A DNA stretch of 64,000 nucleotides from Podospora anserina (Eukaryota). A program made the translations under genes and the position numbers. Location of the stretch: contig CM030335.1 of the NCBI GenBank assembly GCA_017654855.1, positions 186,001 through 250,000 of the forward strand. Reading direction: 5' to 3'. The notes below the pieces were generated by a model. It saw nothing but the letters and a program-made list of their open reading frames with translations. It ran no database searches and was not told the DNA's origin. Below are positions 18,797 through 50,548 of the stretch, piece after piece. Position 1 is the stretch's first letter; every line of letters starts with the position of its first letter.

Positions 18797-20578
18797 ACGT
18801 ACATTATAAGCGAGTCGCGCACTAGCCATTGCGACGCGTTCTCTCTACACTTAACATCATTTTTCTCCACAACCCAACATGCCACCTACTTTAAAAGAAG
18901 CGAGGGTAATCTTAGCCCTCGAAGCTCTTCAGAATGATGAGCGTTTAAGCGTCAGAGCAGCAGCGAGGCTCTATAATATTCCAGAATTAACGCTCCGTAA
19001 CCGACGCGCTGGCCGGCCTACACGACGCGATACTACGCCCAAATCGAAGAAGCTCACTTAATCCGAAGAGGATATTATTGTTTAATATATTATTAAGCTA
19101 TATGCGCGAGCTTTTCTACTAAAATTACGTAGTGTAAAGATATAGCTAATTAATTACTACGTATACGCGACGTGCCCCTTATTAGTAAGCTTTAAGTATA
19201 TAACTTGGTTAAACGTTAACTATAGTTCCGTACGTATTTCACGTATAGATATAACTATTAAAGGGCTAAGTATAAAGATCTAAAGGTTATAGCCAAATAA
19301 TTCTCGTTTATATAAAACACTAAGGCTAAGTATAGTATTATAAATAATAATATTTATAAATTCGACGAATCTAAGTTTATAATAAATATTATTTTTATAA
19401 GTATAGTAATTACGACTTCGGACGGTTATAATAAAGTAAAATTAATTTAAAGAGTTAATACTTTCGGCTAAGCTATTCCCTTTTTTATTACTTTAATTAT
19501 AATACTATTTTGTTAATTAATATACTAAATATAATTTATTATTTACTTAATGTGTTATAATTATTAATAATAATAAAATTAAGTATTTCGATTATTATAT
19601 AACGTTCTATATAAAAGGTAAATATTAACTATTAATCCTCGAAGGTTACGAAAGTAATTATTTAACTAAATTTAAACGTTACTATTAATAGAATAATATT
19701 ATTATACTTTATATACTTTTATACTTCTTTTACTTCCTTTAGCTATTTGATATTAATTGCTTTGGGCCGTTAAAATAAACGTACGGTCGCTAGATCGAGG
19801 ACTTCATATATAGATATATTAATTATATAAGTAAGCTCGAGTTCCTCTATACTTTCCGCGAAGCCTTCTTTGCCTCTATAATAGAGAAAAATATATAGGG
19901 TAGCTTTACGGGTACTAGCCTTATACCGTACGATTTAAAGAAGGTACTTTTTAAGCTAGATATAAAGCTTCGTACGTTAATACCTTTAAATTTACGGCCC
20001 GGCACTATATAACTTTAGGTCTCCTAGATACTATATAACCCTCGAGAAAATAACTTATAGTTAATGCTTTTTAAGATTCGCATTACTAACTATTAAAATA
20101 GTTTCCTGACTTTAATATTAGCTGCGGTAGACCAGCTTATTAAAGGTATAACGGCTAGAATGCACTAGGTGGCTTTCCTTTGTATAGAGGTCTCTTTGCT
20201 CCGTAAGGCTAATGAGGCACTAAGTAAGCGCCGGAGAGCCAAAAAAACACGTGTGAGGCTTGGAAGGTAACTTACTGTACAAGAGGCACAGGATCTACTG
20301 GATCAGAAGGCCGTGGATAAGGAGGGAGTGTAAGAAACGTAGCCGGATAGTAGTAATGTAGGGGGGGCTCGTACGAAGGTTCAGTGCTGTGGTGTATGCG
20401 GTAAGCCTGGCTATAATGCGCGTATTTGCTAGGAGGCTGTAGAAGCATCTGATTCAGCTGTTTCTGATGTAATTATAGTTAATTCCTTGTCTTGATGTGG
20501 TGTAATTGAGGATAGTATTCGTAGGGTGGTAGAGAGTGCGCGACTCGCTTATATGCGCGACTCGCTTATAATGTACGT
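18797..20578 (+). mobile_element. Fot1/pogo-family (Tc1/mariner superfamily) DNA transposon, near full length, RIP-inactivated
   Basis: 25-bp TIRs ACGTACATTATAAGCGAGTCGCGCA flanked by TA on both sides (18795-96, 20579-80). Transposase start MPPTLKEARVILALEALQ...AARLYNIPELTLRNRRAGR at 18879; C-terminal CGVCGKPG(H)NAR(T)C knuckle at ~20388-20430; TpA-rich core with many TAA/TAG stops. Confidence 0.95.
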
Positions 20579-34406: not shown

Positions 34407-35115
34407 TGTTGGCGGTGAGTGTGTATAACACGGAGGATTAGGTGGATGGGTACATTGGTGTAACTTGCCTACCTTACCTTAGGTAGATAAAATTTACCAG
34501 CATGTGTTGCCGTGTGGTGAACACCCAGACTCTCATTTTGAGAGAAATCCAATGCTGTTTCTGGAAGACATACTGCCAAAATCGGAGGAAGATTTCTTCT
34601 TCATTTCTACATTCACAACCCTAAATCTTCCAATGAACCTGAAGTATAAGGCCGATAGAAAATAAAAATCCAAAATTAAATAAGCTGTAGAAAATATAGG
34701 TATTTTGGTATATCGAGCTTGTATTCTTCAGCTTTTTAGCGGAATAACAACTTGTTATATATTTAGATATTTATATTTCAATTTTTAAACCGAGATTAAG
34801 ATTATATAATTATAAGAAATGCGTTTTACTAAAGATTTAACTAAATAACTAACGTATATTATAAGCAAGTGACCCACTTCCTTCGTAATATAACACCTTC
34901 GCACTCAACAGCAATTTCCTTAACTATTTAAGATACTTTCTAATTCAAATAAAGCCCACATAATTTTAGCCCTCCAAGCGCTTCAAAACGACAAGAATCT
35001 AATGTCACAGTTAACCTAACGGCAAGTCGCGCTATATGTAGGGCGCAGGTCGCCCCTAGCTAATTATTAAGGAAGCTAGGGAATAAGCTAATTAGGCCTA
35101 AATAAAAGTGCTATG

Positions 35116-35484
35116 TGTGACGAACCCCTGTATAGAACCTCTGAAAGGGATACTAATTAAAGGTAACTTTTAATAATTAGTTCGGTATAACTAAATAGTA
35201 TATAATAAAATATCTTAATGTAAATACTAAATACTGTAAATATAAACTTAAATTATATACTACGGAACTATCTATTTATATTAGCTAGTTCTTTCGTATA
35301 TATAAACCGGTTTATTACTATTATTACTAGTAATAATATTAATTATTACTTGTCGCTTATTAAGGCTAGTAATAATCGTAATTATTACTTTTAGCGCTAA
35401 TAATAATTTAGCTTTCTTACTTTTCCGTACTAGTAGTTAAACGGTTCGCGCCCCGTATTCTCCGCTTATATTAGGACCGTAATA
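35116..35484 (-). repeat. 3' LTR (type B)
   Basis: Direct repeat of 41513-41881; adjacent to the polypurine tract. Confidence 0.93.
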
Positions 35485-35597
35485 TAATATCCTTCCTCTA
35501 GGTTAACGTCTTATTAGCCTAGTCTCGTCGACTATATACGTTTTTCCTTCTTTTTTTATAAACCTCTCTCTAATTATATAATGGCCTAACTAACGTT

Positions 35598-36286
35598 ATA
35601 TCTATAGTAAAACCTCTATCGTCGTTTATATAATATTGTATTAAACTCGCTTAAAATATTATTAAAAACGGTTTCCTCGTTATACTTTACTCGTAGTATA
35701 ATTCGTAGGGGTTATCTTACCGTATAATGGATAAAGTAAAGCGTTATAAGGCTTATATATATCGTAAGCGTTTATATAATAGTACCGGTATCCCTATCTC
35801 CTCGCGTAAGTCTCCCGTTACCTTTCTTTTCTTCTTACTAATCTCTTTTTAGTAAATAAGATTATACAAGAGTAACGTCGTTTTTAGGAGGAAGAGAAGC
35901 GGGCCGAAACTCTTTTAATCGAATACTAATAGAAAGCTTTTAAGGCTTTAACTCGTCTATCGCGAGTCCGTTATTAACGTAAATTTCTTATAAATAAGGG
36001 AGCTATTATAGTCGCCCGCAGCTTCTTTTCTCTCGATAAATTAGAAACTACCGAACGTATCGAATAGGAGGAAGCTACGTAAGCCGCGCCGGCTATACCG
36101 TTATTTAACAACGTTCCTTCCTCTAATTATATTCCCTTAAATCCTTCCGACTTTTCCTTTCTAGATCCTTCCTTAAGCTTCGACTAGCCGCCTAACCTTT
36201 CCTTAAACCCGGGCGTAGCCGGTCCTTCCTTCCTGACCCCGCAAAGTGCCGCCGAGGGCGCGCTTTCTACTTTTTAAGGTAATTAA
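35598..36286 (+). pseudogene. RIP-inactivated antisense accessory ORF of the retrotransposon: Zn(II)2Cys6-spaced motif plus coiled coil, with one intron
   Basis: TAC/TAT codons at 35688-35777 spaced x2-x6-x8-x2-x6 (TGY->TAY by RIP). Intron 35806-35852 (GTAAGT...TACTAAT...TAG) preserves the frame. All in-frame stops are TAA/TAG. The start codon is uncertain. Confidence 0.7.
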
Positions 36287-36328
36287 AACGCGTAGTACTA
36301 CTTATACTTAAGTCTTTCCATACCTTTT

Positions 36329-36398
36329 AACCTCGTAGTGTAGTGCGTAGTACGTCGGCTACCGCGTTAAAGGTATAGGTTCGATTCCCGTCGAGGTT
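36329..36398 (+). ncRNA. tRNA-like cloverleaf, copy 1 (inside the retrotransposon, antisense to pol)
   Basis: 7-bp acceptor stem AACCTCG/CGAGGTT; A-box-like TAGTGTAGTGCG; B-box GGTTCGATTCC; non-canonical 6-nt anticodon loop. Confidence 0.7.
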
Positions 36399-36527
36399 CT
36401 TCCGTATCTAAGTTTATAGATACCCCTCCGTAGCTTAGGTATAGATCTTTTTAGCTATATCTTTAACTTTTTTTACGGTAGTGGAGGCGTATAGTATTAG
36501 TTAGGCCTAGATTTCTTTATACTTACT

Positions 36528-36597
36528 AACCTCGTAGTATAGTACGTAGTACGTCGACTACTATATTAAAGGCGTAGGTTCGATTCCTACTAAGGTT
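36528..36597 (+). ncRNA. tRNA-like cloverleaf, copy 2
   Basis: Copy 199 bp downstream of copy 1; perfect T-arm GTAGG-TTCGATT-CCTAC; followed by a T-run. Confidence 0.65.
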
Positions 36598-39500
36598 TTT
36601 TTATATTTAAGTTTATAAATACTTTTCTATAGTTTAAGTATAGATCTTTTTATTATTTAGGTTTTGGTCGGTTTAAGTATTATTAGTAAAATTCTTTTTA
36701 CTTATTTAAGTAGTTAAGATATACCTATAGTTCCTATAAGTTATTTATAATTAAATATTTTAATTAATTAATTAAATACTTTAATTAACCTTTATTAAGC
36801 TATAAATCTAATATTTCTTTTATATTATATTTTTCTTCTTCGTCCTCCGCTACTACTTATATATTAGCTTTATTTATATATAGTATAGGTTCCAAAAGTA
36901 AAATATAAAAAGTATATAACCGTAAACGTATTGTATTAAGTAACTCTAATTCGAATACCGTTTCTAAAATCTTTTTTTTAACTTTAAATAGGCCTACTTT
37001 TTTATAGTTTAGCTTCTTATTAAGTCTTTTAATACGTAAATTATATATAAAAAGGAATACTATATCCCCCCTTTTAAAACAAAGTCCTTCGAGCCTTTTA
37101 GTATTATAGTATTTTCGTATCCTTTCCTTTATAAACTCTAGCTCTTACTTTAGCTTACCGTAAAGTATATATAATTTATTTACTTTAATTCTAGCCTTAA
37201 GTACCTTAACCGTAGGTCCTTACTGTCGGTTTACTTTATAGCCGAAATTCGCGAAGAAAGGTATAACTTTCGTGGTTTTTATTAATAATATATTATATAT
37301 TAATTATACTGTAAATAATAATTTAATTTAATTATCCTACTCGAAATTAATATAATTTCGTAAGTATTATTCTATAATTTAATTAAGCCGTTCCGTTTAA
37401 CCGTCCGTTTAAGGGTAATAAACTAAAGATACTTTATTTATTACTTTTAGTTTAGTTATTAACGCTCTTTATAACTTCGATACGAATTTAGTATTACGGT
37501 CCGTAATAAATTTTTTTAACTATATATATATTAATATAATATACTATAATACTATATTCGCTAATTACTTTACCGATTAAGTTTTTTTATAAAGTAAAAA
37601 ATATATTTATTTAATAAGCCTATCGATTACTATTAATATATTATCGTATTTAACGCTAATTACCGTATCTTTTAATTTTAATAATTTAATAATAAAGTCT
37701 ATTATAATTAAATTTTATAATTATTTTACTATTAATAATAGCTTTAGAAATCTATATAGTTTATACCTCGTAACCCTCGTTTTCTCGTACGTATAGTATA
37801 ACTAAATAACTTCCTTAACGTCGTCCTTAATCTTTAGTTAATTAAAATACTACTTAATCTTTTTTATAGTTTTAGCGATACCTATATATCCTTTAAACTT
37901 CGATCCGTAAATCTCTATTACTAATATCGTCCTATTACCTAGCATTACGTACGCTCGATTTTTATACTATAGTCTTCCCTAACTATCTTTTTAGATACCT
38001 TATAGCTCTAACTTTTCCTATTAATATTACTCCGTAATATTATTACTTAACCTTCCTTAATATTTACTGCTAGAAGTAACTTACTTATAATATATTATAT
38101 AATACTTTATTTACGGCTAAAGTAAATATTTAAGAGTGCCTTTTAGTATTTCCTCGAGTAATAATAGTAATTCCCTAAATATATCTTTATAATAATTAAA
38201 TCGCCGGCTAAATACGTCTACCTTAACGTTTTTTAATCCCTTTTTATAATTAATTTAAAAATTAAATTTTAAAAGAAACTTTAATTATTATATTTATTAT
38301 ACGTTAAGGACTTTTATAATAGTAAAATATTATAGGTTTTTATAATTTATATAAACCTATACTTTATAATTAATATTATTAAAATATAACCTCTATTCTT
38401 CGAACGCTTTAATAATAGCGAATAGCTCTTTATTATAGATTAAGTAGTTTTAACGTATCTCTTTTAGCTTCTTCGAAAAGAAAGTTACTAGGTATAGCTT
38501 CCCGTTATTATTTCGCTATCCTAATTATTTACCGATCGTATAGTTTAATATATCCGCCTCGACCTTAAATAATTAATTAAAGTTTAGTAATTTAAATACT
38601 AGGTCCTTTAAAATAGCTTTTTTTAGCTTTTAAAAAGCCTACTCCTTTTTCTACCCCTACCGGAACTCTACGTCCTTCTTAATTAAGTAATTAAGTAATT
38701 ACGCGATTCTTATATATTTATAAATAAATATCCGATAGAAGTTCGTAAATCCTAAAAATTCCTTAACGTATATTTATAATTACGGCGTAAGCTAATTTTT
38801 AATTACCGTAATTTTCCCCGGTTTTATACGAACCTTACTTAACGATATTAAATATTTTAAATATATTATTTTTTATACGTAAAACTCACTTTTTTTTTTA
38901 TTAATTAAAAGTCTAGCTCCATATAGCGCGTTAAATATTTTTCGTACGTATCGCTTATACTTTTCTAAAGTACGTAAGTAAATAAAAACGTTATTAAAGT
39001 AGTATATTATTATTTTATCGAGGTACTTCCGGATCGTATAATTAACAAGAGATTAAAACGTTATAAGTATATTAATTAGCTTAAATAATATTATAAGATA
39101 CTCGAAATAACTATAGGGTATACGAAACGTTATTTTTTATTTATTTCTTTCTTTAATCCGTATATAGGTATATCCGATAAATATATTTAAATATATAAAG
39201 TATTATACCCCTATTAATTAATTCCGTAACTTAGATATTAACGGTAGCGGGTAATTATTTTTTACCGTTACGTTATTTAATTAGCGGTAATTTATATATA
39301 ATCGTAAGCTATTGTTTTTTTTCGGTATAAAGAATACGGGGTATCTTACTAGCGATATAGACTCCTTAATATATTTTCTTTTTAGATTTTCGTTTAAGTA
39401 CTTCCGTAGCTCCTTACTCTACTTATCGTTAGTATAATAGACTTTAAATAGCCGTAATTTAGCTTTCTCTTTTAATTTAATTTTATAGTCCTACGGTCCT

Positions 39501-41512
39501 CGCTCTAAAAGTCCTTTTAAATACTTAGCCGTAAAGGCTAAATATCCTCGATATTCTATTAGTACCGCTTTTTTCTTACCTTTCTTTACGTTATTATAGT
39601 AAGTATACTTATTAACCTCCAATATCTCTACTAACGTTATTAACCCTACTTCTTCGATTTTACCGCTTATATCGATAAAGTATACTATTACTTTTTAAAC
39701 TCCTTACGGTAATACCGTAAAAGGTACTTATCCTATACTTTACTCTATATATATACCTAATTTCCTATCGTTAATTAAATACTTTTAAAGCTCTTTTAAT
39801 CGTAAATAACTATTATCCCTCTAATCGATATTTAGGTTATAGTCTTTATATTATAGTTACCTTAAAATTATATCCTTCGAAGGTTTTATATTTATAATAT
39901 CGAATATAATTAAAATTATTTTTCCTTTAATTATAATAATTAAAAATAATATTTCTCTATAGACTCTTTACGTCGGAAATAGTCCTTATATAACGATTTA
40001 TTCCTTCTTTTTTCTCTATAGTATTTTAGTTTAATATATAAACTATAGCGAAATTAGGTTCGTTTCTATACCTCCGTTTACTAATATTACTGTTTAAATA
40101 TTCTTTTAATATATTATAACCTAAAGGCGTTTATTTTTTTTATTTTTTCCTTATATAATAGCGACCTCGCTAATAAGTACCGGATTATTATCCTATACCT
40201 TCGCTTTATATTAATATTTACGAAAATACTATTCGTGGTTCGTTAAAGGTTACCGGCCCTCGCGAAGGGCTGTAAATCGTTTCTTAAGCGATTATATTGT
40301 TTAAAAGCGTCCTCTTACTCCGGATTAATTAATAATATAAAGTTTTTTAACTATACTTACTTAGCTTCTTCTTATCTTCCGTCTTTTACTTCCTTAATAC
40401 TCTTTCGTATTTATATTTAGTAACGGTTCTTCGCTTTATTTAATTAGTATTTAATAGCTACGACCTCTACTACTTTTGGTCCCTTTAATATAATAATTAT
40501 TGCGATTTCCCTTTTTTAACCGAGTTACTTAAATACTTTATAATCCTTTTTAAAGTATTTTACTTTACTATAATTAAAATACTTAAGGTTATTTCTACCT
40601 TAGCCCCGGCCTTACGGCTTTTACTATTAGATAGTATCGACCTCTATAGGTCCTACGTAGGTAGTCCCTAAAACGTAAGTCCCGTACGGCCGTCTCTTTT
40701 TATTATTATTAAAGTAATAAAGTCTTTATATATATATATTTTTATATTCCTTACGTCATTAATATTATTAATCGTCGATATAGATTATTATTATAATATA
40801 TTTATCGATAGTTTCTAGCCGCTTTATTTAATATAGTTTATCCTTAACTTCTTCCTTAAACTTATTATAAAACACTTATATTAACCTTTTATCGTTAATC
40901 GCGTTACGGAATATATTTATTTTAAATACTATAGCGTAATCGGTAGTAAATCGAGTTTATTTAAAGTTAGCTAGTCGCTTTTAAATACACTTACTTTTAT
41001 TATACTCTTTAAATACTTCCTTAATTTTCTTTTTAAAACTTTTATAAAACTTAAAATATATTTAAGTAATATCCTCCCTCTAATTAAGCGTATTATTAAA
41101 GTAATTTCTTAAAATTGGTTCGAATTACGTAAATGCCGTATCTTTAAGCCTAGACGCGGCGTATATAACTTTAGATTCCTCGTTTAAGAAACGAAAAGGG
41201 TAGTACCGAAAATAAACTTTAAGTTAAATTAAGAATCCTCCTAGCTCTCCTTTTATACTTCTATAGTAATTAGGTACTTCGAGCTTCGTACGCTTTCCCT
41301 CTTTACGTAAAGTATTAATTTTTTAATAGAGTATAGCGTTTCTTACGTAAAGGTATTATAGGAAAGGCGTAACTTATTTTTAAGCTTTTAAATACAAGCG
41401 AGAAGCTAATTAATAGTAGGTTGGGTCGGGATTCCCTAAGTATTAATGTTTCCGGCTATAGCGTTTTAATACTTTTAATTTATTTATAATAAGTTAAAGT
41501 AAGTATATAACG

Positions 41513-41881
41513 TGTAACGAACTCCTATATAGAACCTCTAAAAGGGATACTAATTAAAGGTAACTTTTAATAATTAGTTCGGTGTAGCTAAATAATATAT
41601 AATAAGATGTCTTAATGCAAATACTAAATACCGTAAATGCAGGCTTGAATTGCATACTGCGGAACTATCTATTTACACTAGCCAGTTCCTCCGTATATAT
41701 AGACCGGTTTATCACTATTATCACCAGTGATAATATTGATTATCACTCGTCGCTTACTAAGGCTGGTGATAATCGTGATTATTACCCTTGGCGCTAGTGA
41801 TAATCCAGCTTCCCCACCTTTCCGTGCCAGTGGTTAGACGGTTCGCGCCCCGCATTCCCCGCTTATATCAGGACCGTGACA
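41513..41881 (-). repeat. 5' LTR (type B)
   Basis: Direct repeat of 35116-35484 and less RIP-mutated; TATA and shared R/U5 half at 41513-41703. Confidence 0.93.
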
Positions 41882-43245
41882 CTATGGCGCCAAAGCTCAC
41901 GAGCAGTCTGCAGGATGCAAGATGCTAAGGGTGATCAGAGGCATAGCACGACGAGCACGTTGCAGGATGCAATGTGCTAGGAGTGATCGGGGCCATAGCA
42001 GGGCGAGCACCTCACGGCCCCAGGATCTATATATACGGAGGAACTGGCTGGTGTAGATAGACAGTTCCGCAGTATGCAATTCAAGCTTGTATTTACGGTA
42101 TCTAGTGTTTACATTGAGACATCTTGTTGTGCACTGTTTAGCTGCACCGAACCAATTGTCAGAAGTTACCTTCAACCAGTATCCCTTTCAGAGGTTCTGT
42201 ACAGGGGTTCGTCACATCTAAACGAACGAACCGCAGCCAAAATCTATAGAATCGATCGTAAGACTCTAGGGCGTTAGCGCGCTGGCCGGCCTATACGACG
42301 CGATACTATACCTATATCGAAGAAGCTTACTTAATCCGAAAAAGATACTATTATTAAATACGTTATTAAGCTATATACGTAAGCTTTTTTACTAAGATTA
42401 CGTAATATAAAAGAAATAGCTAACCAACTACTACGCGTATACAACGCGCTCTCTATTAGTAAGCTCTAAGCATATCACTTCGTTAAACGCTAATTATAAC
42501 TCCGTATACGTTTTACATATAAATACGACTATTAAAAAGCTAAATATAAAAATTTAAAGGTTATTACCGAATAATTTACGTCTATACGGAATATTAAAGT
42601 TAAATATAATATTATAAATAATAATATTTATAACTTCGACGAAACTAAATTTATAATAAATATTATTTTCGCAGGTATAGTAATTATAACCTCAGACGGC
42701 CTTAAAAAAGTAAAACTAATCTAGTTTAGTAACTATAAATAAGCACCTATAATTCAAGGAATCAATACCCTCAGCTAAACTATCCCTCCCTTTATTATTT
42801 TAGCCCCGTAGTACTACTTACTAACTAATATACCGAATATAACTTCCTAGCCGACTAGCGTATTTCAATTACCGATAATAGTTAAACTATTAATACGGTA
42901 AGCTTAAATTAAATTAAGTACTTCGATTACTACACGGCGTCCCGTATAAAACGTAAATACCGGTTGTTAATCCTCGACGGCTACGAAAGCTACTACTTAA
43001 CCGAATTCAAGCGTTACTATTAATAAAATAATAATATTACGCTCTATATACTTCTATATTTTTTTTTTACTTTTAGCTACCTGGTATCAGCTACTTTGGG
43101 CCGCTAAAGTAGGCGTAGAGTTATTAAATCAAGGACTTAATATATATATATGTTAACTATATAAGTACGCTCGAATTCCTCTATACCTTCCGTAAAACTT
43201 TATTTACCTCTATAATAAAAAAAGATATATAGGGTAGCTTTATAG

Positions 43246-47347: not shown

Positions 47348-50300
47348 TCATTCCTTACTCCCATTTTCCTTCGTCTTCTCCTCTTCCACCTTCCCCCCAC
47401 CCTCACCTCCACCGCCATTATTACCACCCCCAAGAAACAAACTCCTAAAATCAGCATTACTCTTCTTCGGCCCAACAAGAGCAACCCCATTCGTCCTCAC
47501 CCCCAACCCCGGCGCCCCCGTTCCCATGCCCATCTTCGGCTTCGACCTCCCCAGCACCTGCGGCCGGTTGATACTCGGCGGCGGCGGCATCAACTGCGCA
47601 GCCGTCGGCGGCTTCTTCCTCTGCTTCTCCGGCTCCGGACGCGCACACGGGTCACTCCCCGCCACCTTCTTCTCCCCTTTGCTCTGAAACAGCTCCTCCG
47701 TCGTGCCAACACGCAGCTTCTGACCAGCTTCCACCTCCAGCCCGTCGATCACCAGCTGAGCCTTCCCCGCCGACGCGGCATCCTTGTACTCAACAATCGC
47801 GCCCCCATGCCGGGCATGCAACGTCAGCTTGACAAACTCCCCGGCCGGCTTGAGCAAATTCCCCACGCGGGCTTCGTTCATCGTGTCAGGAACGCCCAGA
47901 ATGACAACCTTTCGATCTCTCGCCGCACCGCCGCCGCCGCCAGAAGATACTGTTGATTCGGCAGCTGTGGACGCAGGGGATTCGGCATCCTCGGCGCCTC
48001 CCCAGGCTGTCGCCGTCTTCTTCTTCGTCCCCTTTGGCATCGAGGGCTCGACCTTGATCGGATGCTGTCCAAACATGGCCTTGTCCAGCAGCTTGATGGC
48101 CTCCTGCGCCTCCTCCTTGGTCTGCATCACCACAAACGCCGTCCCCAGATGCGGAATCCGCACGCTGACCACCTTGCCAGCCTTGGTAAAGTGGCCTTCG
48201 ACCTCGTCCTCCTTCATGGTGCGGGGGATGTTGATCACGTGCAGCTCTCTCTCCTCTTCCTGCGCCCCTTGCCGGTGCTGCTTGTGTGCTGGGTCGGATA
48301 TCTTGACCACGAGCCTGCACCTCCCACCCAACGCCTTCCCGTCCAGCTTGAGCGCTGCCTCGGCCGAGGCCCGCTCCCGAAAGGTGAGGTAGCAAAACCG
48401 CCGCTTCACGTTTTCCTTGAGGCTGGGGAACCGGATGCTGTGGATCTCGCCGTGGGCCTTGAAGAGGTTGCGGAGGTACTCCTCGTCGGCGTCTGGGGGG
48501 TAATTGGTGACAAACAGCGTGCAGTCAATGGCCGGGGTGACTTGGATGATCCGGTCGCCAAAAGGTTTGCCATCGCGGATCAGTGCTGCTCGCGCATCGT
48601 CCGAGTGTCGAAACTCGACCAGGGCAACCGCGTCATCGTCCCCCTTTTTGAGGTCGATGTTGTTGACGTGGCCGTAATCCCGAAAGAACTGCTTGATCTT
48701 GGTTTGGGTGGCGTCAGCAGGCAAGTTCCGCAAGAAAACCGTGTTGTGCTCGCGATCCCGTTTCACGTCATCCCCGTTCGTCTCGCTCCTGGGCCGCTTG
48801 TTAGCAGCATCGTCTTCGGCCGGGGTCGGCTCTCGCTTGCGCTTGGATCCGGGTGACGCGGAACCGGAAGCATCTGTCATGGGGACGTCTTCGCTCCTGT
48901 CCGCTGGCGCTGCTTGCTCCCGGGCTGCTGCGGCTTGCCGGGCTGCCTCGGCGGCCTGCCGTGCTTCCCGTTCTCGGCGCTTCTCGACCCCCTTGCGCGT
49001 CTTGTAGATGGTGTCGTGGGCCTCGCGCAGTGTTTCGGCCAGCTCGTAGTCATTGCAGTGCTTGAGGTACACCTGGAGAATCCGTTCGGGCCAGTCAAGA
49101 GTCCTAACCTTGAGCGCCCTGGTGAAAACGCGGGTGGCCAAGCTGGGGACCAGCAGACCTTGAGCCTGTGTGTTGGGGGTAGGGCTGCGGAGTTTGGCTC
49201 TGTGTGCGGTGAAGACTACCATCTCCCAGAGATACCAGTTGAGCCAAAAGTCGTAGCTGTTAGCGTGCAGCGGGATTTGCGACAGCTCATCCCAGATAGC
49301 ACGAGCCCCCTCGATGTCTTCCTTCTTTTCGGTGAGAAACTGGATCAGAATCTTCTCGAGGCGGTAGTCCGGATCGCCCTGGTAGTTTTCGCCGTATTTT
49401 CGCTGACCCCAGTGCTTGACATCCTCGAGGGCAGAGGAGAGACCCACTTCGGCAACATCAACAGCCTCTTCGCTGGCCTTGGGGTTCATGGCTGTTCGCT
49501 TGAGATAGCCGCACCATGCAGAATACATGTCCAAAACACCCGTCATTCCGTCTCTGTCAAGCTGGGGACTGTTGGTGGCGGCATGCTTGATGCGTTCGAC
49601 GTCGGCAAAGGTTAGCGCAGCCTCCTCGGCAGCCAAGATGTACCGAGCCCACACAGGACCCGCCCAGGGAATGTGATGCACGGCGCGACGGAGAACGTCG
49701 AGCATGTTTGGGACCAGATTGGCCGAGACGCGGGCACGGCCTGCCTTGAGGTCCGACTGGGAGGTCGACACCAGCGTGATAAAGTTAAGCCATGTAGTGT
49801 CGTCCGACGCCAGCACGCCTGTCAGCGCCCTTGAAAAGAGGCCGAGACAAATCTTGAAGTTGTCCAGCGCGTCCCGCTTGCCCTTGTGCTGCTTGATCTC
49901 CCAGTCAATGTACTCTAGCATCTCTGCACGTACCGCTGCCGTGTCTCCAGACTTGACGGCCAGCGACAGCTTGGTCTCGAAAGGGTCGCGCAGCGCATAC
50001 AGGCGCTTTGCATTCTTGGCGCTCCTCGTGATCTGCTCCATCTCGCTCTCGTAGGCCTGGCGGTTGTACTCGGAGAGGAATGTGGAAAACATCTGGGATG
50101 TCCTGTCCCAGGTGGCGTGCGGGACAGTCAGCCGATTGCGGAACAGCTGGGTGATTCTGCGAACACCAGCCTCGGTCACGGTCCGCCTCAGCAGCTCCAT
50201 CTCGAGCGAGATCCAGCGGTCCCAGAGTTCGTTGCTGTCGGACAGGCGGTACTGGACAGCCTCGTAGCCCCGCTGCCAGAGGTTGAGGGCGGCATCGATG

Positions 50301-50548
50301 GTGAATATGGAACGTCCGACCTCCTGCTCTTCTGGGGACCAGCCGGCATCGCTAACAGGTTGACAGTCGTTGTAGAGCGACCAAAAGTACTCGCAGTAGG
50401 CCATCCAGACCTTGATGCTCCCGGGCTCGGCCGACACGGCGTCGTTGAAGCTCTCAATCACGCGCACGCGTGCCTCGAGGTCGGTGGCTTCGCGCAGCTG
50501 GTGGTCGACATAGTCGACCCAATTGTCCTCCCCCACCGGGCTCGCCAT
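47348..50548 (-). CDS. prp24: U4/U6 snRNP recycling factor Prp24/SART3
   Basis: N-terminal HAT-like helical repeats, four RRMs (TVFLRNLP, TLFVTNYP, ELHVINIP, KVVILGVP) and C-terminal Lsm-interaction motif KKSNADFRSLFL. Confidence 0.92.
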   Translation of the reverse strand: MASPVGEDNWVDYVDHQLREATDLEARVRVIESFNDAVSAEPGSIKVWMAYCEYFWSLYNDCQPVSDAGWSPEEQEVGRSIFTIDAALNLWQRGYEAVQYRLSDSNELWDRWISLEMELLRRTVTEAGVRRITQLFRNRLTVPHATWDRTSQMFSTFLSEYNRQAYESEMEQITRSAKNAKRLYALRDPFETKLSLAVKSGDTAAVRAEMLEYIDWEIKQHKGKRDALDNFKICLGLFSRALTGVLASDDTTWLNFITLVSTSQSDLKAGRARVSANLVPNMLDVLRRAVHHIPWAGPVWARYILAAEEAALTFADVERIKHAATNSPQLDRDGMTGVLDMYSAWCGYLKRTAMNPKASEEAVDVAEVGLSSALEDVKHWGQRKYGENYQGDPDYRLEKILIQFLTEKKEDIEGARAIWDELSQIPLHANSYDFWLNWYLWEMVVFTAHRAKLRSPTPNTQAQGLLVPSLATRVFTRALKVRTLDWPERILQVYLKHCNDYELAETLREAHDTIYKTRKGVEKRREREARQAAEAARQAAAAREQAAPADRSEDVPMTDASGSASPGSKRKREPTPAEDDAANKRPRSETNGDDVKRDREHNTVFLRNLPADATQTKIKQFFRDYGHVNNIDLKKGDDDAVALVEFRHSDDARAALIRDGKPFGDRIIQVTPAIDCTLFVTNYPPDADEEYLRNLFKAHGEIHSIRFPSLKENVKRRFCYLTFRERASAEAALKLDGKALGGRCRLVVKISDPAHKQHRQGAQEEERELHVINIPRTMKEDEVEGHFTKAGKVVSVRIPHLGTAFVVMQTKEEAQEAIKLLDKAMFGQHPIKVEPSMPKGTKKKTATAWGGAEDAESPASTAAESTVSSGGGGGAARDRKVVILGVPDTMNEARVGNLLKPAGEFVKLTLHARHGGAIVEYKDAASAGKAQLVIDGLEVEAGQKLRVGTTEELFQSKGEKKVAGSDPCARPEPEKQRKKPPTAAQLMPPPPSINRPQVLGRSKPKMGMGTGAPGLGVRTNGVALVGPKKSNADFRSLFLGGGNNGGGGEGGGKVEEEKTKENGSKE

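Follow-up and report, generated by a model that had tools for sequence, protein, structure and literature searches.

The tRNA-like sequences described to date from long terminal repeat (LTR) retroelements are those that tiny non-autonomous elements, exemplified by Helenus, carry in their LTRs. In the available text of Kojima 2024 (PMC10886601), Helenus/TRIMp3 elements are non-autonomous TRIMs (terminal-repeat retrotransposons in miniature) of 311-1263 bp that carry the tRNA-like sequence in their LTRs, with a site for primer binding (PBS) and a polypurine tract (PPT) between the LTRs. The same text proposes that they arose by insertion of a tRNA-type short interspersed nuclear element (SINE) and states that the target-site duplications (TSDs) of the fungal members are 5 bp long. 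Here, we describe a pair of tRNA-like units in a different setting. They lie in a 64,000-nucleotide stretch of Podospora anserina DNA (contig CM030335.1, positions 186,001 to 250,000; hereafter the window, within which all coordinates are given), inside a complete Ty3/gypsy chromovirus that is probably a member of the crapaud family. We consider it probable that both derive from one unit of RNA polymerase III (Pol III) type, descended from a glycine-like tRNA, that was carried antisense in the 3' untranslated region (UTR) of a crapaud-type subfamily, was duplicated in tandem, was mutated through repeat-induced point mutation (RIP), and is now inert.

Like Helenus, this locus combines a tRNA-derived sequence within an LTR retrotransposon with motifs of the box A and box B type, and it probably encodes no working tRNA. 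It differs from Helenus in that the tRNA-like sequence lies antisense in an internal 3' UTR rather than in an LTR, and in that the carrier is an autonomous, pol-bearing gypsy chromovirus of 6.77 kb (6766 bp) rather than a TRIM of less than 1.3 kb. The host is an ascomycete (Sordariales), whereas the available text on Helenus describes its fungal members as Copia-linked elements of Pucciniales and Agaricomycetes. Cassandra, as presented in the same part of PMC10886601, likewise places a Pol III-type small-RNA gene fragment in an LTR retroelement, but that fragment is 5S rRNA-derived, lies in the LTR in sense orientation, and belongs to a non-autonomous plant element; transcription from its promoter has been reported. 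AfuSINE2 of Aspergillus fumigatus resembles the units in having a tRNA-related head with Pol III boxes and a short unrelated body (PMC5063351, available text). In contrast to SINEs of this type, the unit described here sits within an LTR element and seems to have been amplified along with it, and neither a TSD nor a 3' tail was seen. Retand elements of the gypsy group share tandem repeats directly after pol and a long non-coding stretch before the 3' LTR (PMC11963269, available text), but they are plant non-chromovirus elements, and the word tRNA does not occur in the main text of that paper as available. We found no literature report of a tRNA-like sequence inside crapaud or an autonomous fungal chromovirus; the supplements of PMC10787394 and PMC10886601 may bear on this.

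The units lie within two direct repeats next to the end of pol, with the following features:

36329..36399, plus strand: tRNA-like unit, copy 1 (Rfam RF00005, 29.5 bits, model positions 1-71; 19/21 standard pairs)
36528..36598, plus strand: tRNA-like unit, copy 2 (Rfam RF00005, 35.6 bits; also ARAGORN; 18/21 standard pairs)
36378..36388, plus strand: B-box-like GGTTCGATTCC in copy 1 (motif search)
36577..36587, plus strand: B-box-like GGTTCGATTCC in copy 2 (motif search)
36448..36452, plus strand: first run of five Ts (T5) 3' of copy 1, resembling a Pol III terminator (motif search)
36647..36651, plus strand: homologous T5 run of copy 2 (motif search)
36260..36458, plus strand: duplication unit A, 199 bp, comprising 69 nt of upstream sequence, the tRNA-like unit and a 59-nt trailer with T5 (RIP-tolerant local alignment; repeat search with spacing 199; blastn)
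36459..36657, plus strand: duplication unit B, 199 bp, its right end abutting the pol stop codon (same alignment, repeat search and blastn; sequence)

Both units are tRNA-derived. Each matched the Rfam tRNA family RF00005 over the full length of the model (positions 1-71) and reached its gathering score of 29, by a margin that is tiny for tRNA membership. The E-values for copies 1 and 2 were 0.0097 and 0.0002 when 14 kb were searched and 0.044 and 0.00092 over the whole window, in which these were the sole gathering-level Rfam matches to any family. At its default settings, ARAGORN called copy 2, with the isotype Arg-tcg, but not copy 1; with a lowered threshold, copy 1 and the de-RIP version of the two copies were called as well, with the same isotype. 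A degenerate (R/Y) pattern running from the D arm to the anticodon arm matched only copy 1 in the window and had no chance matches in 100 shuffles. The same pattern had no matches in viral contigs. Its single match in a metagenome contig (L001) was set aside as chance; that contig is GC-rich and apparently bacterial and yielded no tRNA by ARAGORN or Rfam.

The sequence at 36329-36652 and its cloverleaf parse agree with the original prediction, which was made from the letters alone. Copy 1 has a perfect 7-bp acceptor stem, a D stem (GTGT/GTAC), the D loop AGTGCGTA, a short anticodon arm, a 4-nt variable loop and a T arm; copy 2 has a perfect T arm (GTAGG/CCTAC) and one C-A mismatch in the acceptor. 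Counted over the four-arm cloverleaf, 19 of 21 pairs are standard in copy 1 and 18 of 21 in copy 2. The minimum-energy fold differs from the cloverleaf (-16.7 and -16.5 kcal/mol for the two units, versus -7.5 and -8.8 for the cloverleaf). As also predicted, the anticodon loop has 6 nt and the D loops (AGTGCGTA and AGTACGTA) lack GG. An extra C splits the expected GG (AGTG-C-GTA) in both copies. The short loop can equally be described as a 20-nt stretch from G26 to the T stem, covering the anticodon arm and variable loop, where 21-22 nt are canonical; Rfam aligns 14 nt there to 15 model positions.

A decoding tRNA would have a 7-nt anticodon loop (U33, purine 37) closed by a 5-bp stem, and G18G19 in its D loop; neither feature is present in either unit. 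With scores at threshold level, an anticodon arm lacking one base, a D loop without GG and RIP mutations, the units as they stand are predicted to be incapable of decoding. The original prediction had looked to a de-RIP consensus as a check. Column-wise de-RIP of the two copies did not restore a canonical tRNA: 19 of 21 pairs were still standard, and ARAGORN returned 0 genes at its default settings.

The two units belong to one repeat. A transition-lenient local alignment of 36270-36458 with 36469-36656 contained 189 columns, comprising 137 identical positions, 46 transitions, 5 transversions and 1 gap, and scored 276, versus 42 ± 7 for shuffles. The 10 nt between the aligned repeats look, by eye, like 36260-36269. 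With the period constant at 199 bp, similarity extends about 59 nt beyond the tRNA-like part on either side, and the 15 of 71 positions that differ between copies 1 and 2 are all transitions. Since the flanks were duplicated together with the units at this fixed period, the units result from one plain 199-bp tandem duplication, flanks included, and not from two acquisitions. The earlier count of two copies spaced 199 bp apart stands, with a single origin for both; the unit length of about 125 bp given at that time falls short of the roughly 189 bp found by alignment within the 199-bp duplication. Defects that RIP does not explain, namely the D-loop C and the short anticodon arm, are common to both copies, indicating that the source was degenerate before the duplication.

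These observations bear on two alternatives. One is that two tRNA-derived SINEs inserted independently, each with its own TSD, the very case that the original prediction had named as fatal to itself. Each copy does have a tRNA-like head with A and B boxes and a short tRNA-unrelated trailer, and tRNA-related SINEs exist in filamentous fungi, as the available text on AfuSINE2 shows (PMC5063351). The exact 199-bp period at which both flanks were co-duplicated contradicts this scenario; in addition, an A-rich tail and TSDs were not found, and the same indels occur in both copies. We regard it as extremely improbable.

The other is a Helenus-like TRIM, or a tandem array of LTR, internal region and LTR, nested antisense in the 3' UTR with the tRNA-like sequence in its LTRs. 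Two direct repeats of about 189 bp that each contain a tRNA-like head are reminiscent of Helenus LTRs, a purine-rich run, GGTAGTGGAGGCG (36478-36490), stands before the second repeat, and tandem Helenus arrays have been reported (PMC10886601, available text). However, the 10 nt between the repeats are too short for a PBS and a PPT, and both these 10 nt and the purine-rich run belong to the repeated period. Neither TG..CA ends nor a 5-bp TSD could be assigned, and fungal Helenus elements come from Pucciniales and some Agaricomycetes, with no occurrence of the word Ascomycota in the available text of PMC10886601. A nested TRIM is thus very unlikely.

The element that surrounds the units is complete, spans 6766 bp on the minus strand, bears pol and is bounded by 369-bp LTRs. 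Its features are:

35111..35115 and 41882..41886, minus strand: target-site duplication CATAG (sequence)
35116..35484, minus strand: 3' LTR, TA (from TG) ... CA (blastn; sequence)
35490..35499, minus strand: PPT-like AGAGGAAGGA just upstream of the 3' LTR (sequence)
35485..36652, minus strand: 1.17-kb non-coding stretch from the pol stop to the 3' LTR, with the tRNA-like units at its pol-proximal end (six-frame Pfam search without a match; sequence)
36653..36655, minus strand: pol stop codon TAA, with a second TAA at 36650-36652 (reading frame on the sequence)
36656..39328, minus strand: pol, with RVT_1 at 39328-38858, RNase H (RT_RNaseH_2) at 38650-38303 and the integrase domain SH3_Tf2-1 at 37069-36887 (Pfam on a translation reading stops as X, one frame)
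about 36850-36656, minus strand: chromodomain-like C-terminus of pol (alignment to homologue P0001)
41513..41881, minus strand: 5' LTR, TG...CA, less RIP-mutated than the 3' LTR (blastn)

The order of reverse transcriptase (RT), RNase H and integrase in one frame, together with TG..CA LTRs and a short TSD, is that of Ty3/gypsy elements. The LTRs align over 366 bp with 85% identity (blastn). Pfam searches in six frames at E ≤ 0.01 found no family outside pol and none in the plus-strand frames. The stop-as-X translation of pol retrieved 110 homologues (best E = 1.3e-157), most of which contain PF00665 (integrase core) and PF00385 (chromodomain). Its C-terminus, ...EFYXXYLNRPKPK followed by the stop, aligns to the chromodomain-bearing end of the best homologue, P0001, and the internal stops fall at W positions, as expected from RIP of TGG. 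The limits of the element are fixed by an empty-site joint: in contigs from all four of the runs (two DNA and two RNA-labelled), position 35110 is joined to 41882, skipping 6771 bp.

Relative to this minus-strand element the units are antisense, an orientation that the original prediction had missed while correctly placing them inside a retrotransposon. Duplication unit B ends within 2-4 nt of the pol stop. The units are internal to the TSD-bounded element, at least 845 bp from the nearest LTR, and Rfam found no tRNA match in either LTR. Ordinary host tRNA genes beside the landing site of the element, or a chance cloverleaf in AT-rich RIP-mutated DNA, would account for Rfam scores that lie merely at threshold, and LTR elements of other fungi target tRNA genes. 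The internal position argues against host genes. Two full-length matches at the window-wide E-values given above, with none elsewhere, and the absence of the degenerate pattern from the shuffles argue against chance. We consider this explanation hardly credible.

Within the non-coding stretch, the minus strand of 36100-36260 contains scattered PPT-like motifs (AGGAAGGA, AAGGAAAGG and GAAAGGAAAAG) in a patch that is richer in GC and less RIP-mutated than its surroundings. The element itself is nested in another LTR-like repeat (34997-35110 and 41882-42216). In inverted orientation, the 3' half of this repeat (42028-42216) is 81-85% like the 3' half of the element's own LTR, and the other half is different. 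The joint from 35110 to 41882 occurs in some contigs and a joint from 34996 to 42216 in others, a pattern suggestive of nesting within a solo LTR whose U3 belongs to a different subfamily. The flanking repeat also contains a 52-bp GC-rich tandem repeat (41899-42002; two copies, 79% alike), at which one RNA-labelled contig has a 51-bp backward joint, suggesting copy-number variation among copies.

Matched by description rather than by sequence, the element probably belongs to crapaud, the most abundant transposable element family of the P. anserina complex. In the available text of Westerberg 2024 (PMC10787394), crapaud is a Ty3 element with GAG and RT, RNase H, integrase and chromodomain regions, its LTRs have a conserved 3' half and a diversified U3, and clusters of its internal region differ by a deletion of about 1.1 kb. 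Our element resembles it in host clade, in the GAG-pol layout, in heavy RIP and in LTRs of about 370-400 bp whose 3' half is conserved while U3 varies; the LTR fragment at 42028-42216, a third copy, has just the 3' half in common. The 1.17-kb non-coding stretch is close in size to the deletion that separates the crapaud clusters.

The element has been heavily mutated by RIP. In the block at 35-41 kb, TpA/ApT was 1.45-1.9 and (CpA+TpG)/(ApC+GpT) was 0.03-0.18, versus about 0.5-0.8 and about 1.1-1.5, respectively, in the GC-rich flanks; classic RIP DNA spans the 35-43 kb block. Only 3 and 1 CpA/TpG dinucleotides remain in the two units, compared with 30 and 38 TpA. These indices, the dinucleotide census and the ratio of 46 transitions to 5 transversions between the repeats identify the units as parts of a RIP-mutated repeat. 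RIP was uneven, fading toward 41.5-42 kb, as the 5' LTR (41513-41881) keeps far more G+C than the 3' LTR (35116-35484). A second small AT-rich island with RIP-like composition occurs at 19001-20500 (GC 0.28, TpA/ApT 1.48, (CpA+TpG)/(ApC+GpT) 0.21) and has no blastn similarity to the 34-37.2 kb region.

Both units retain Pol III-type motifs. The B box, or T-loop motif, GGTTCGATTCC is exact in both copies when judged against the consensus that we assumed for the motif call, GGTTCGANNCC. The A-box region of copy 1, TAGTGTAGTGC, agrees at 9 of 11 positions with TRGCNNAGTGG, which we take to be the consensus. Being tRNA-related and carrying both box A and box B, the units have the makeup of a SINE2 head. 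A T5 run occurs at the homologous place about 50 nt downstream of each copy, bearing out the T-runs that had been predicted. The survival of the cloverleaf and the B box is uninformative and is no sign of selection. RIP of a G-C pair gives A-T, G-T or A-C, so that three of four outcomes still pair, and the C and G residues of the B box sit in CpG, CpC and CpT contexts, which RIP disfavours. The earlier proposal of tRNA mimics or Pol III promoters rather than decoding tRNAs therefore holds for tRNA derivation and the loss of decoding; a role as mimic or active promoter finds no support in the surviving structure.

We then considered the source of the units. If the base missing from the anticodon arm was lost from the 5' strand of the stem and not from the loop, the loop reads C32-T33-N34-C35-C36-G37-C38, giving the anticodon NCC. 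This specifies glycine whatever RIP did to N34, and a TpG to TpA change there would make the original anticodon GCC. The variable loop AGGC, the D loop AGTG-GTA plus one C, and the T loop TTCGATT presumably fit a eukaryotic tRNA-Gly(GCC). By this reading of the sequence, the source was most likely a gene for tRNA-Gly(NCC) or else a SINE-like copy of such a gene. The Arg-tcg isotype called by ARAGORN (position 27) is unreliable, as that anticodon falls outside the anticodon loop of the cloverleaf. No CCA is encoded 3' of the unit in either copy, which points to a gene or a primary Pol III transcript, rather than a mature primer tRNA, as the source. We also rejected a role of the units as primer, in agreement with the original prediction: the 40 nt after the 5' LTR matched neither unit better than chance, with 235 of 300 and 229 of 300 shuffles reaching the score.

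To place the locus in its host, we surveyed sequencing runs and contigs. The locus was present in 20 of the 24 listed sequencing runs, which came from 8 studies of one species, and contigs covering it from two strains were identical or one letter apart. Next to the element, a 1066-aa intron-free open reading frame on the minus strand (47348-50548) encodes a PRP24/SART3-like RRM splicing factor that shares 99% identity with a Podospora comata protein and 87-91% with proteins from other Podosporaceae. In the bin at 36306-36556, summed contig depth was 376 (X1) and 932 (X19), versus 50-69 and 108 for the locus's own contigs; these depths do not measure copy number and may be raised in part by cross-alignment between the two units. 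Both DNA runs also contained the joints 36400>36484, 36563>36653 and 36357>36888 at about single-copy depth. Together, these data point to paralogous copies that carry the tRNA-like region with a different local structure. None of the listed RNA runs covers 35100-37100, and the two RNA-labelled contig sets lacked cover over 35302-37058, which has no bearing on expression.

More distant relatives were sampled through 22 chromovirus-like IMG/VR loci, obtained by profile search with the pol homologues and 25-35% identical in protein sequence to the RIP-mutated pol. ARAGORN found no tRNA in any of the 22 loci, and Rfam found none in 20 loci at gathering level and none in the other 2 at E ≤ 1. Among these distant relatives, the tRNA-like module is thus not a general chromovirus feature. 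Several of the "viral" IMG/VR contigs (L003, L010, L011, L013, L015, L017 and L019) are LTR-retrotransposon sequences whose terminal direct repeats are exact over 71-123 nt, as expected of full-length transcripts (R...R) or circularly assembled copies; L006 has internal 300-nt LTRs instead.

The retained motifs and the additional contigs also allow for a selected function. In this alternative, the unit belongs to the element family as a built-in Pol III module, an autonomous counterpart of TRIMp3/Helenus that, before RIP, recruited TFIIIC and Pol III, the outcome being either a short antisense RNA covering the 3' UTR or a signal for chromatin boundary formation or positioning. Besides the exact B boxes, the near-consensus A box and the homologous T5 runs, it is consistent with a unit that begins right after the pol stop and leaves pol undisrupted, and with the other contigs that overlie the region. 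Furthermore, tRNA-like Pol III promoters are known in LTR elements from Helenus (PMC10886601, available text), and centromeric regions are enriched for crapaud in each of the 7 Podospora species (preprint 10.64898/2025.12.02.690432, available text). Against it stand the absence of a tRNA match from all 22 related loci and the location of the surviving motifs in contexts that RIP spares. In addition, the word tRNA does not occur in the main text, as available, of either the crapaud study (PMC10787394, whose supplements may differ) or the centromere preprint. We therefore judge a selected module to be unlikely. Less likely again is a bolder form, in which an antisense tDNA module is a family feature of crapaud-type chromoviruses: its binding of TFIIIC and Pol III before RIP would have produced either an antisense small RNA over the 3' end, or else a boundary or clustering signal that helps explain centromeric accumulation.

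We therefore return to a degenerate, element-borne and now inert unit as the probable explanation, against which several points weigh. A selected, functional module would account equally well for the exact B box, the near-consensus A box, the homologous T5 runs and the position immediately beyond the pol stop. For the identity of the source tRNA, the date of acquisition and the carriage of the unit by other element copies, this explanation relies on indirect depth figures, and the Arg-tcg isotype disagrees with a glycine origin. Inspection by eye revealed no TSD or A-rich tail flanking either unit that would mark a classical SINE insertion. Pfam detects no chromodomain in the RIP-mutated 88-aa C-terminal stretch of pol, and the assignment to crapaud is a probable one, made from its description.

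A sequence of events can be proposed for such a unit. A single unit, consisting of a tRNA-like head with A and B boxes, a trailer of about 50 nt and a T5 run, would have settled antisense at the start of the 3' untranslated stretch, perhaps by insertion or capture at the DNA level. Only the antisense orientation may have been tolerated, because a tRNA in sense would expose the genomic RNA to cutting by RNase P and RNase Z. At acquisition or soon after, the unit would have been degenerate, with an extra D-loop C and one anticodon-stem base missing, and at least a subfamily of the element may have carried it along. The 199-bp segment containing it was then duplicated in tandem, after which RIP struck the element as a whole, altering the two copies independently. 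They are now most likely inert relics, acting neither as decoding tRNAs nor as the RT primer.

What is new at this locus is that a full-length chromovirus carries a tRNA-like sequence antisense within its internal 3' UTR. This suggests that autonomous elements are able to acquire Pol III-type modules and to carry them, and that the orientation of the tRNA-like sequences they carry may be filtered by RNA processing. It also suggests that tRNA scanners will report false tRNA genes in the RIP-mutated repeats of Sordariales genomes. Conservation of the module in active copies, if established, would tie a retrotransposon enriched at centromeres to Pol III and TFIIIC. As it stands, the finding is mainly a caveat for annotation and adds a little to what is known of the natural history of crapaud-type elements.

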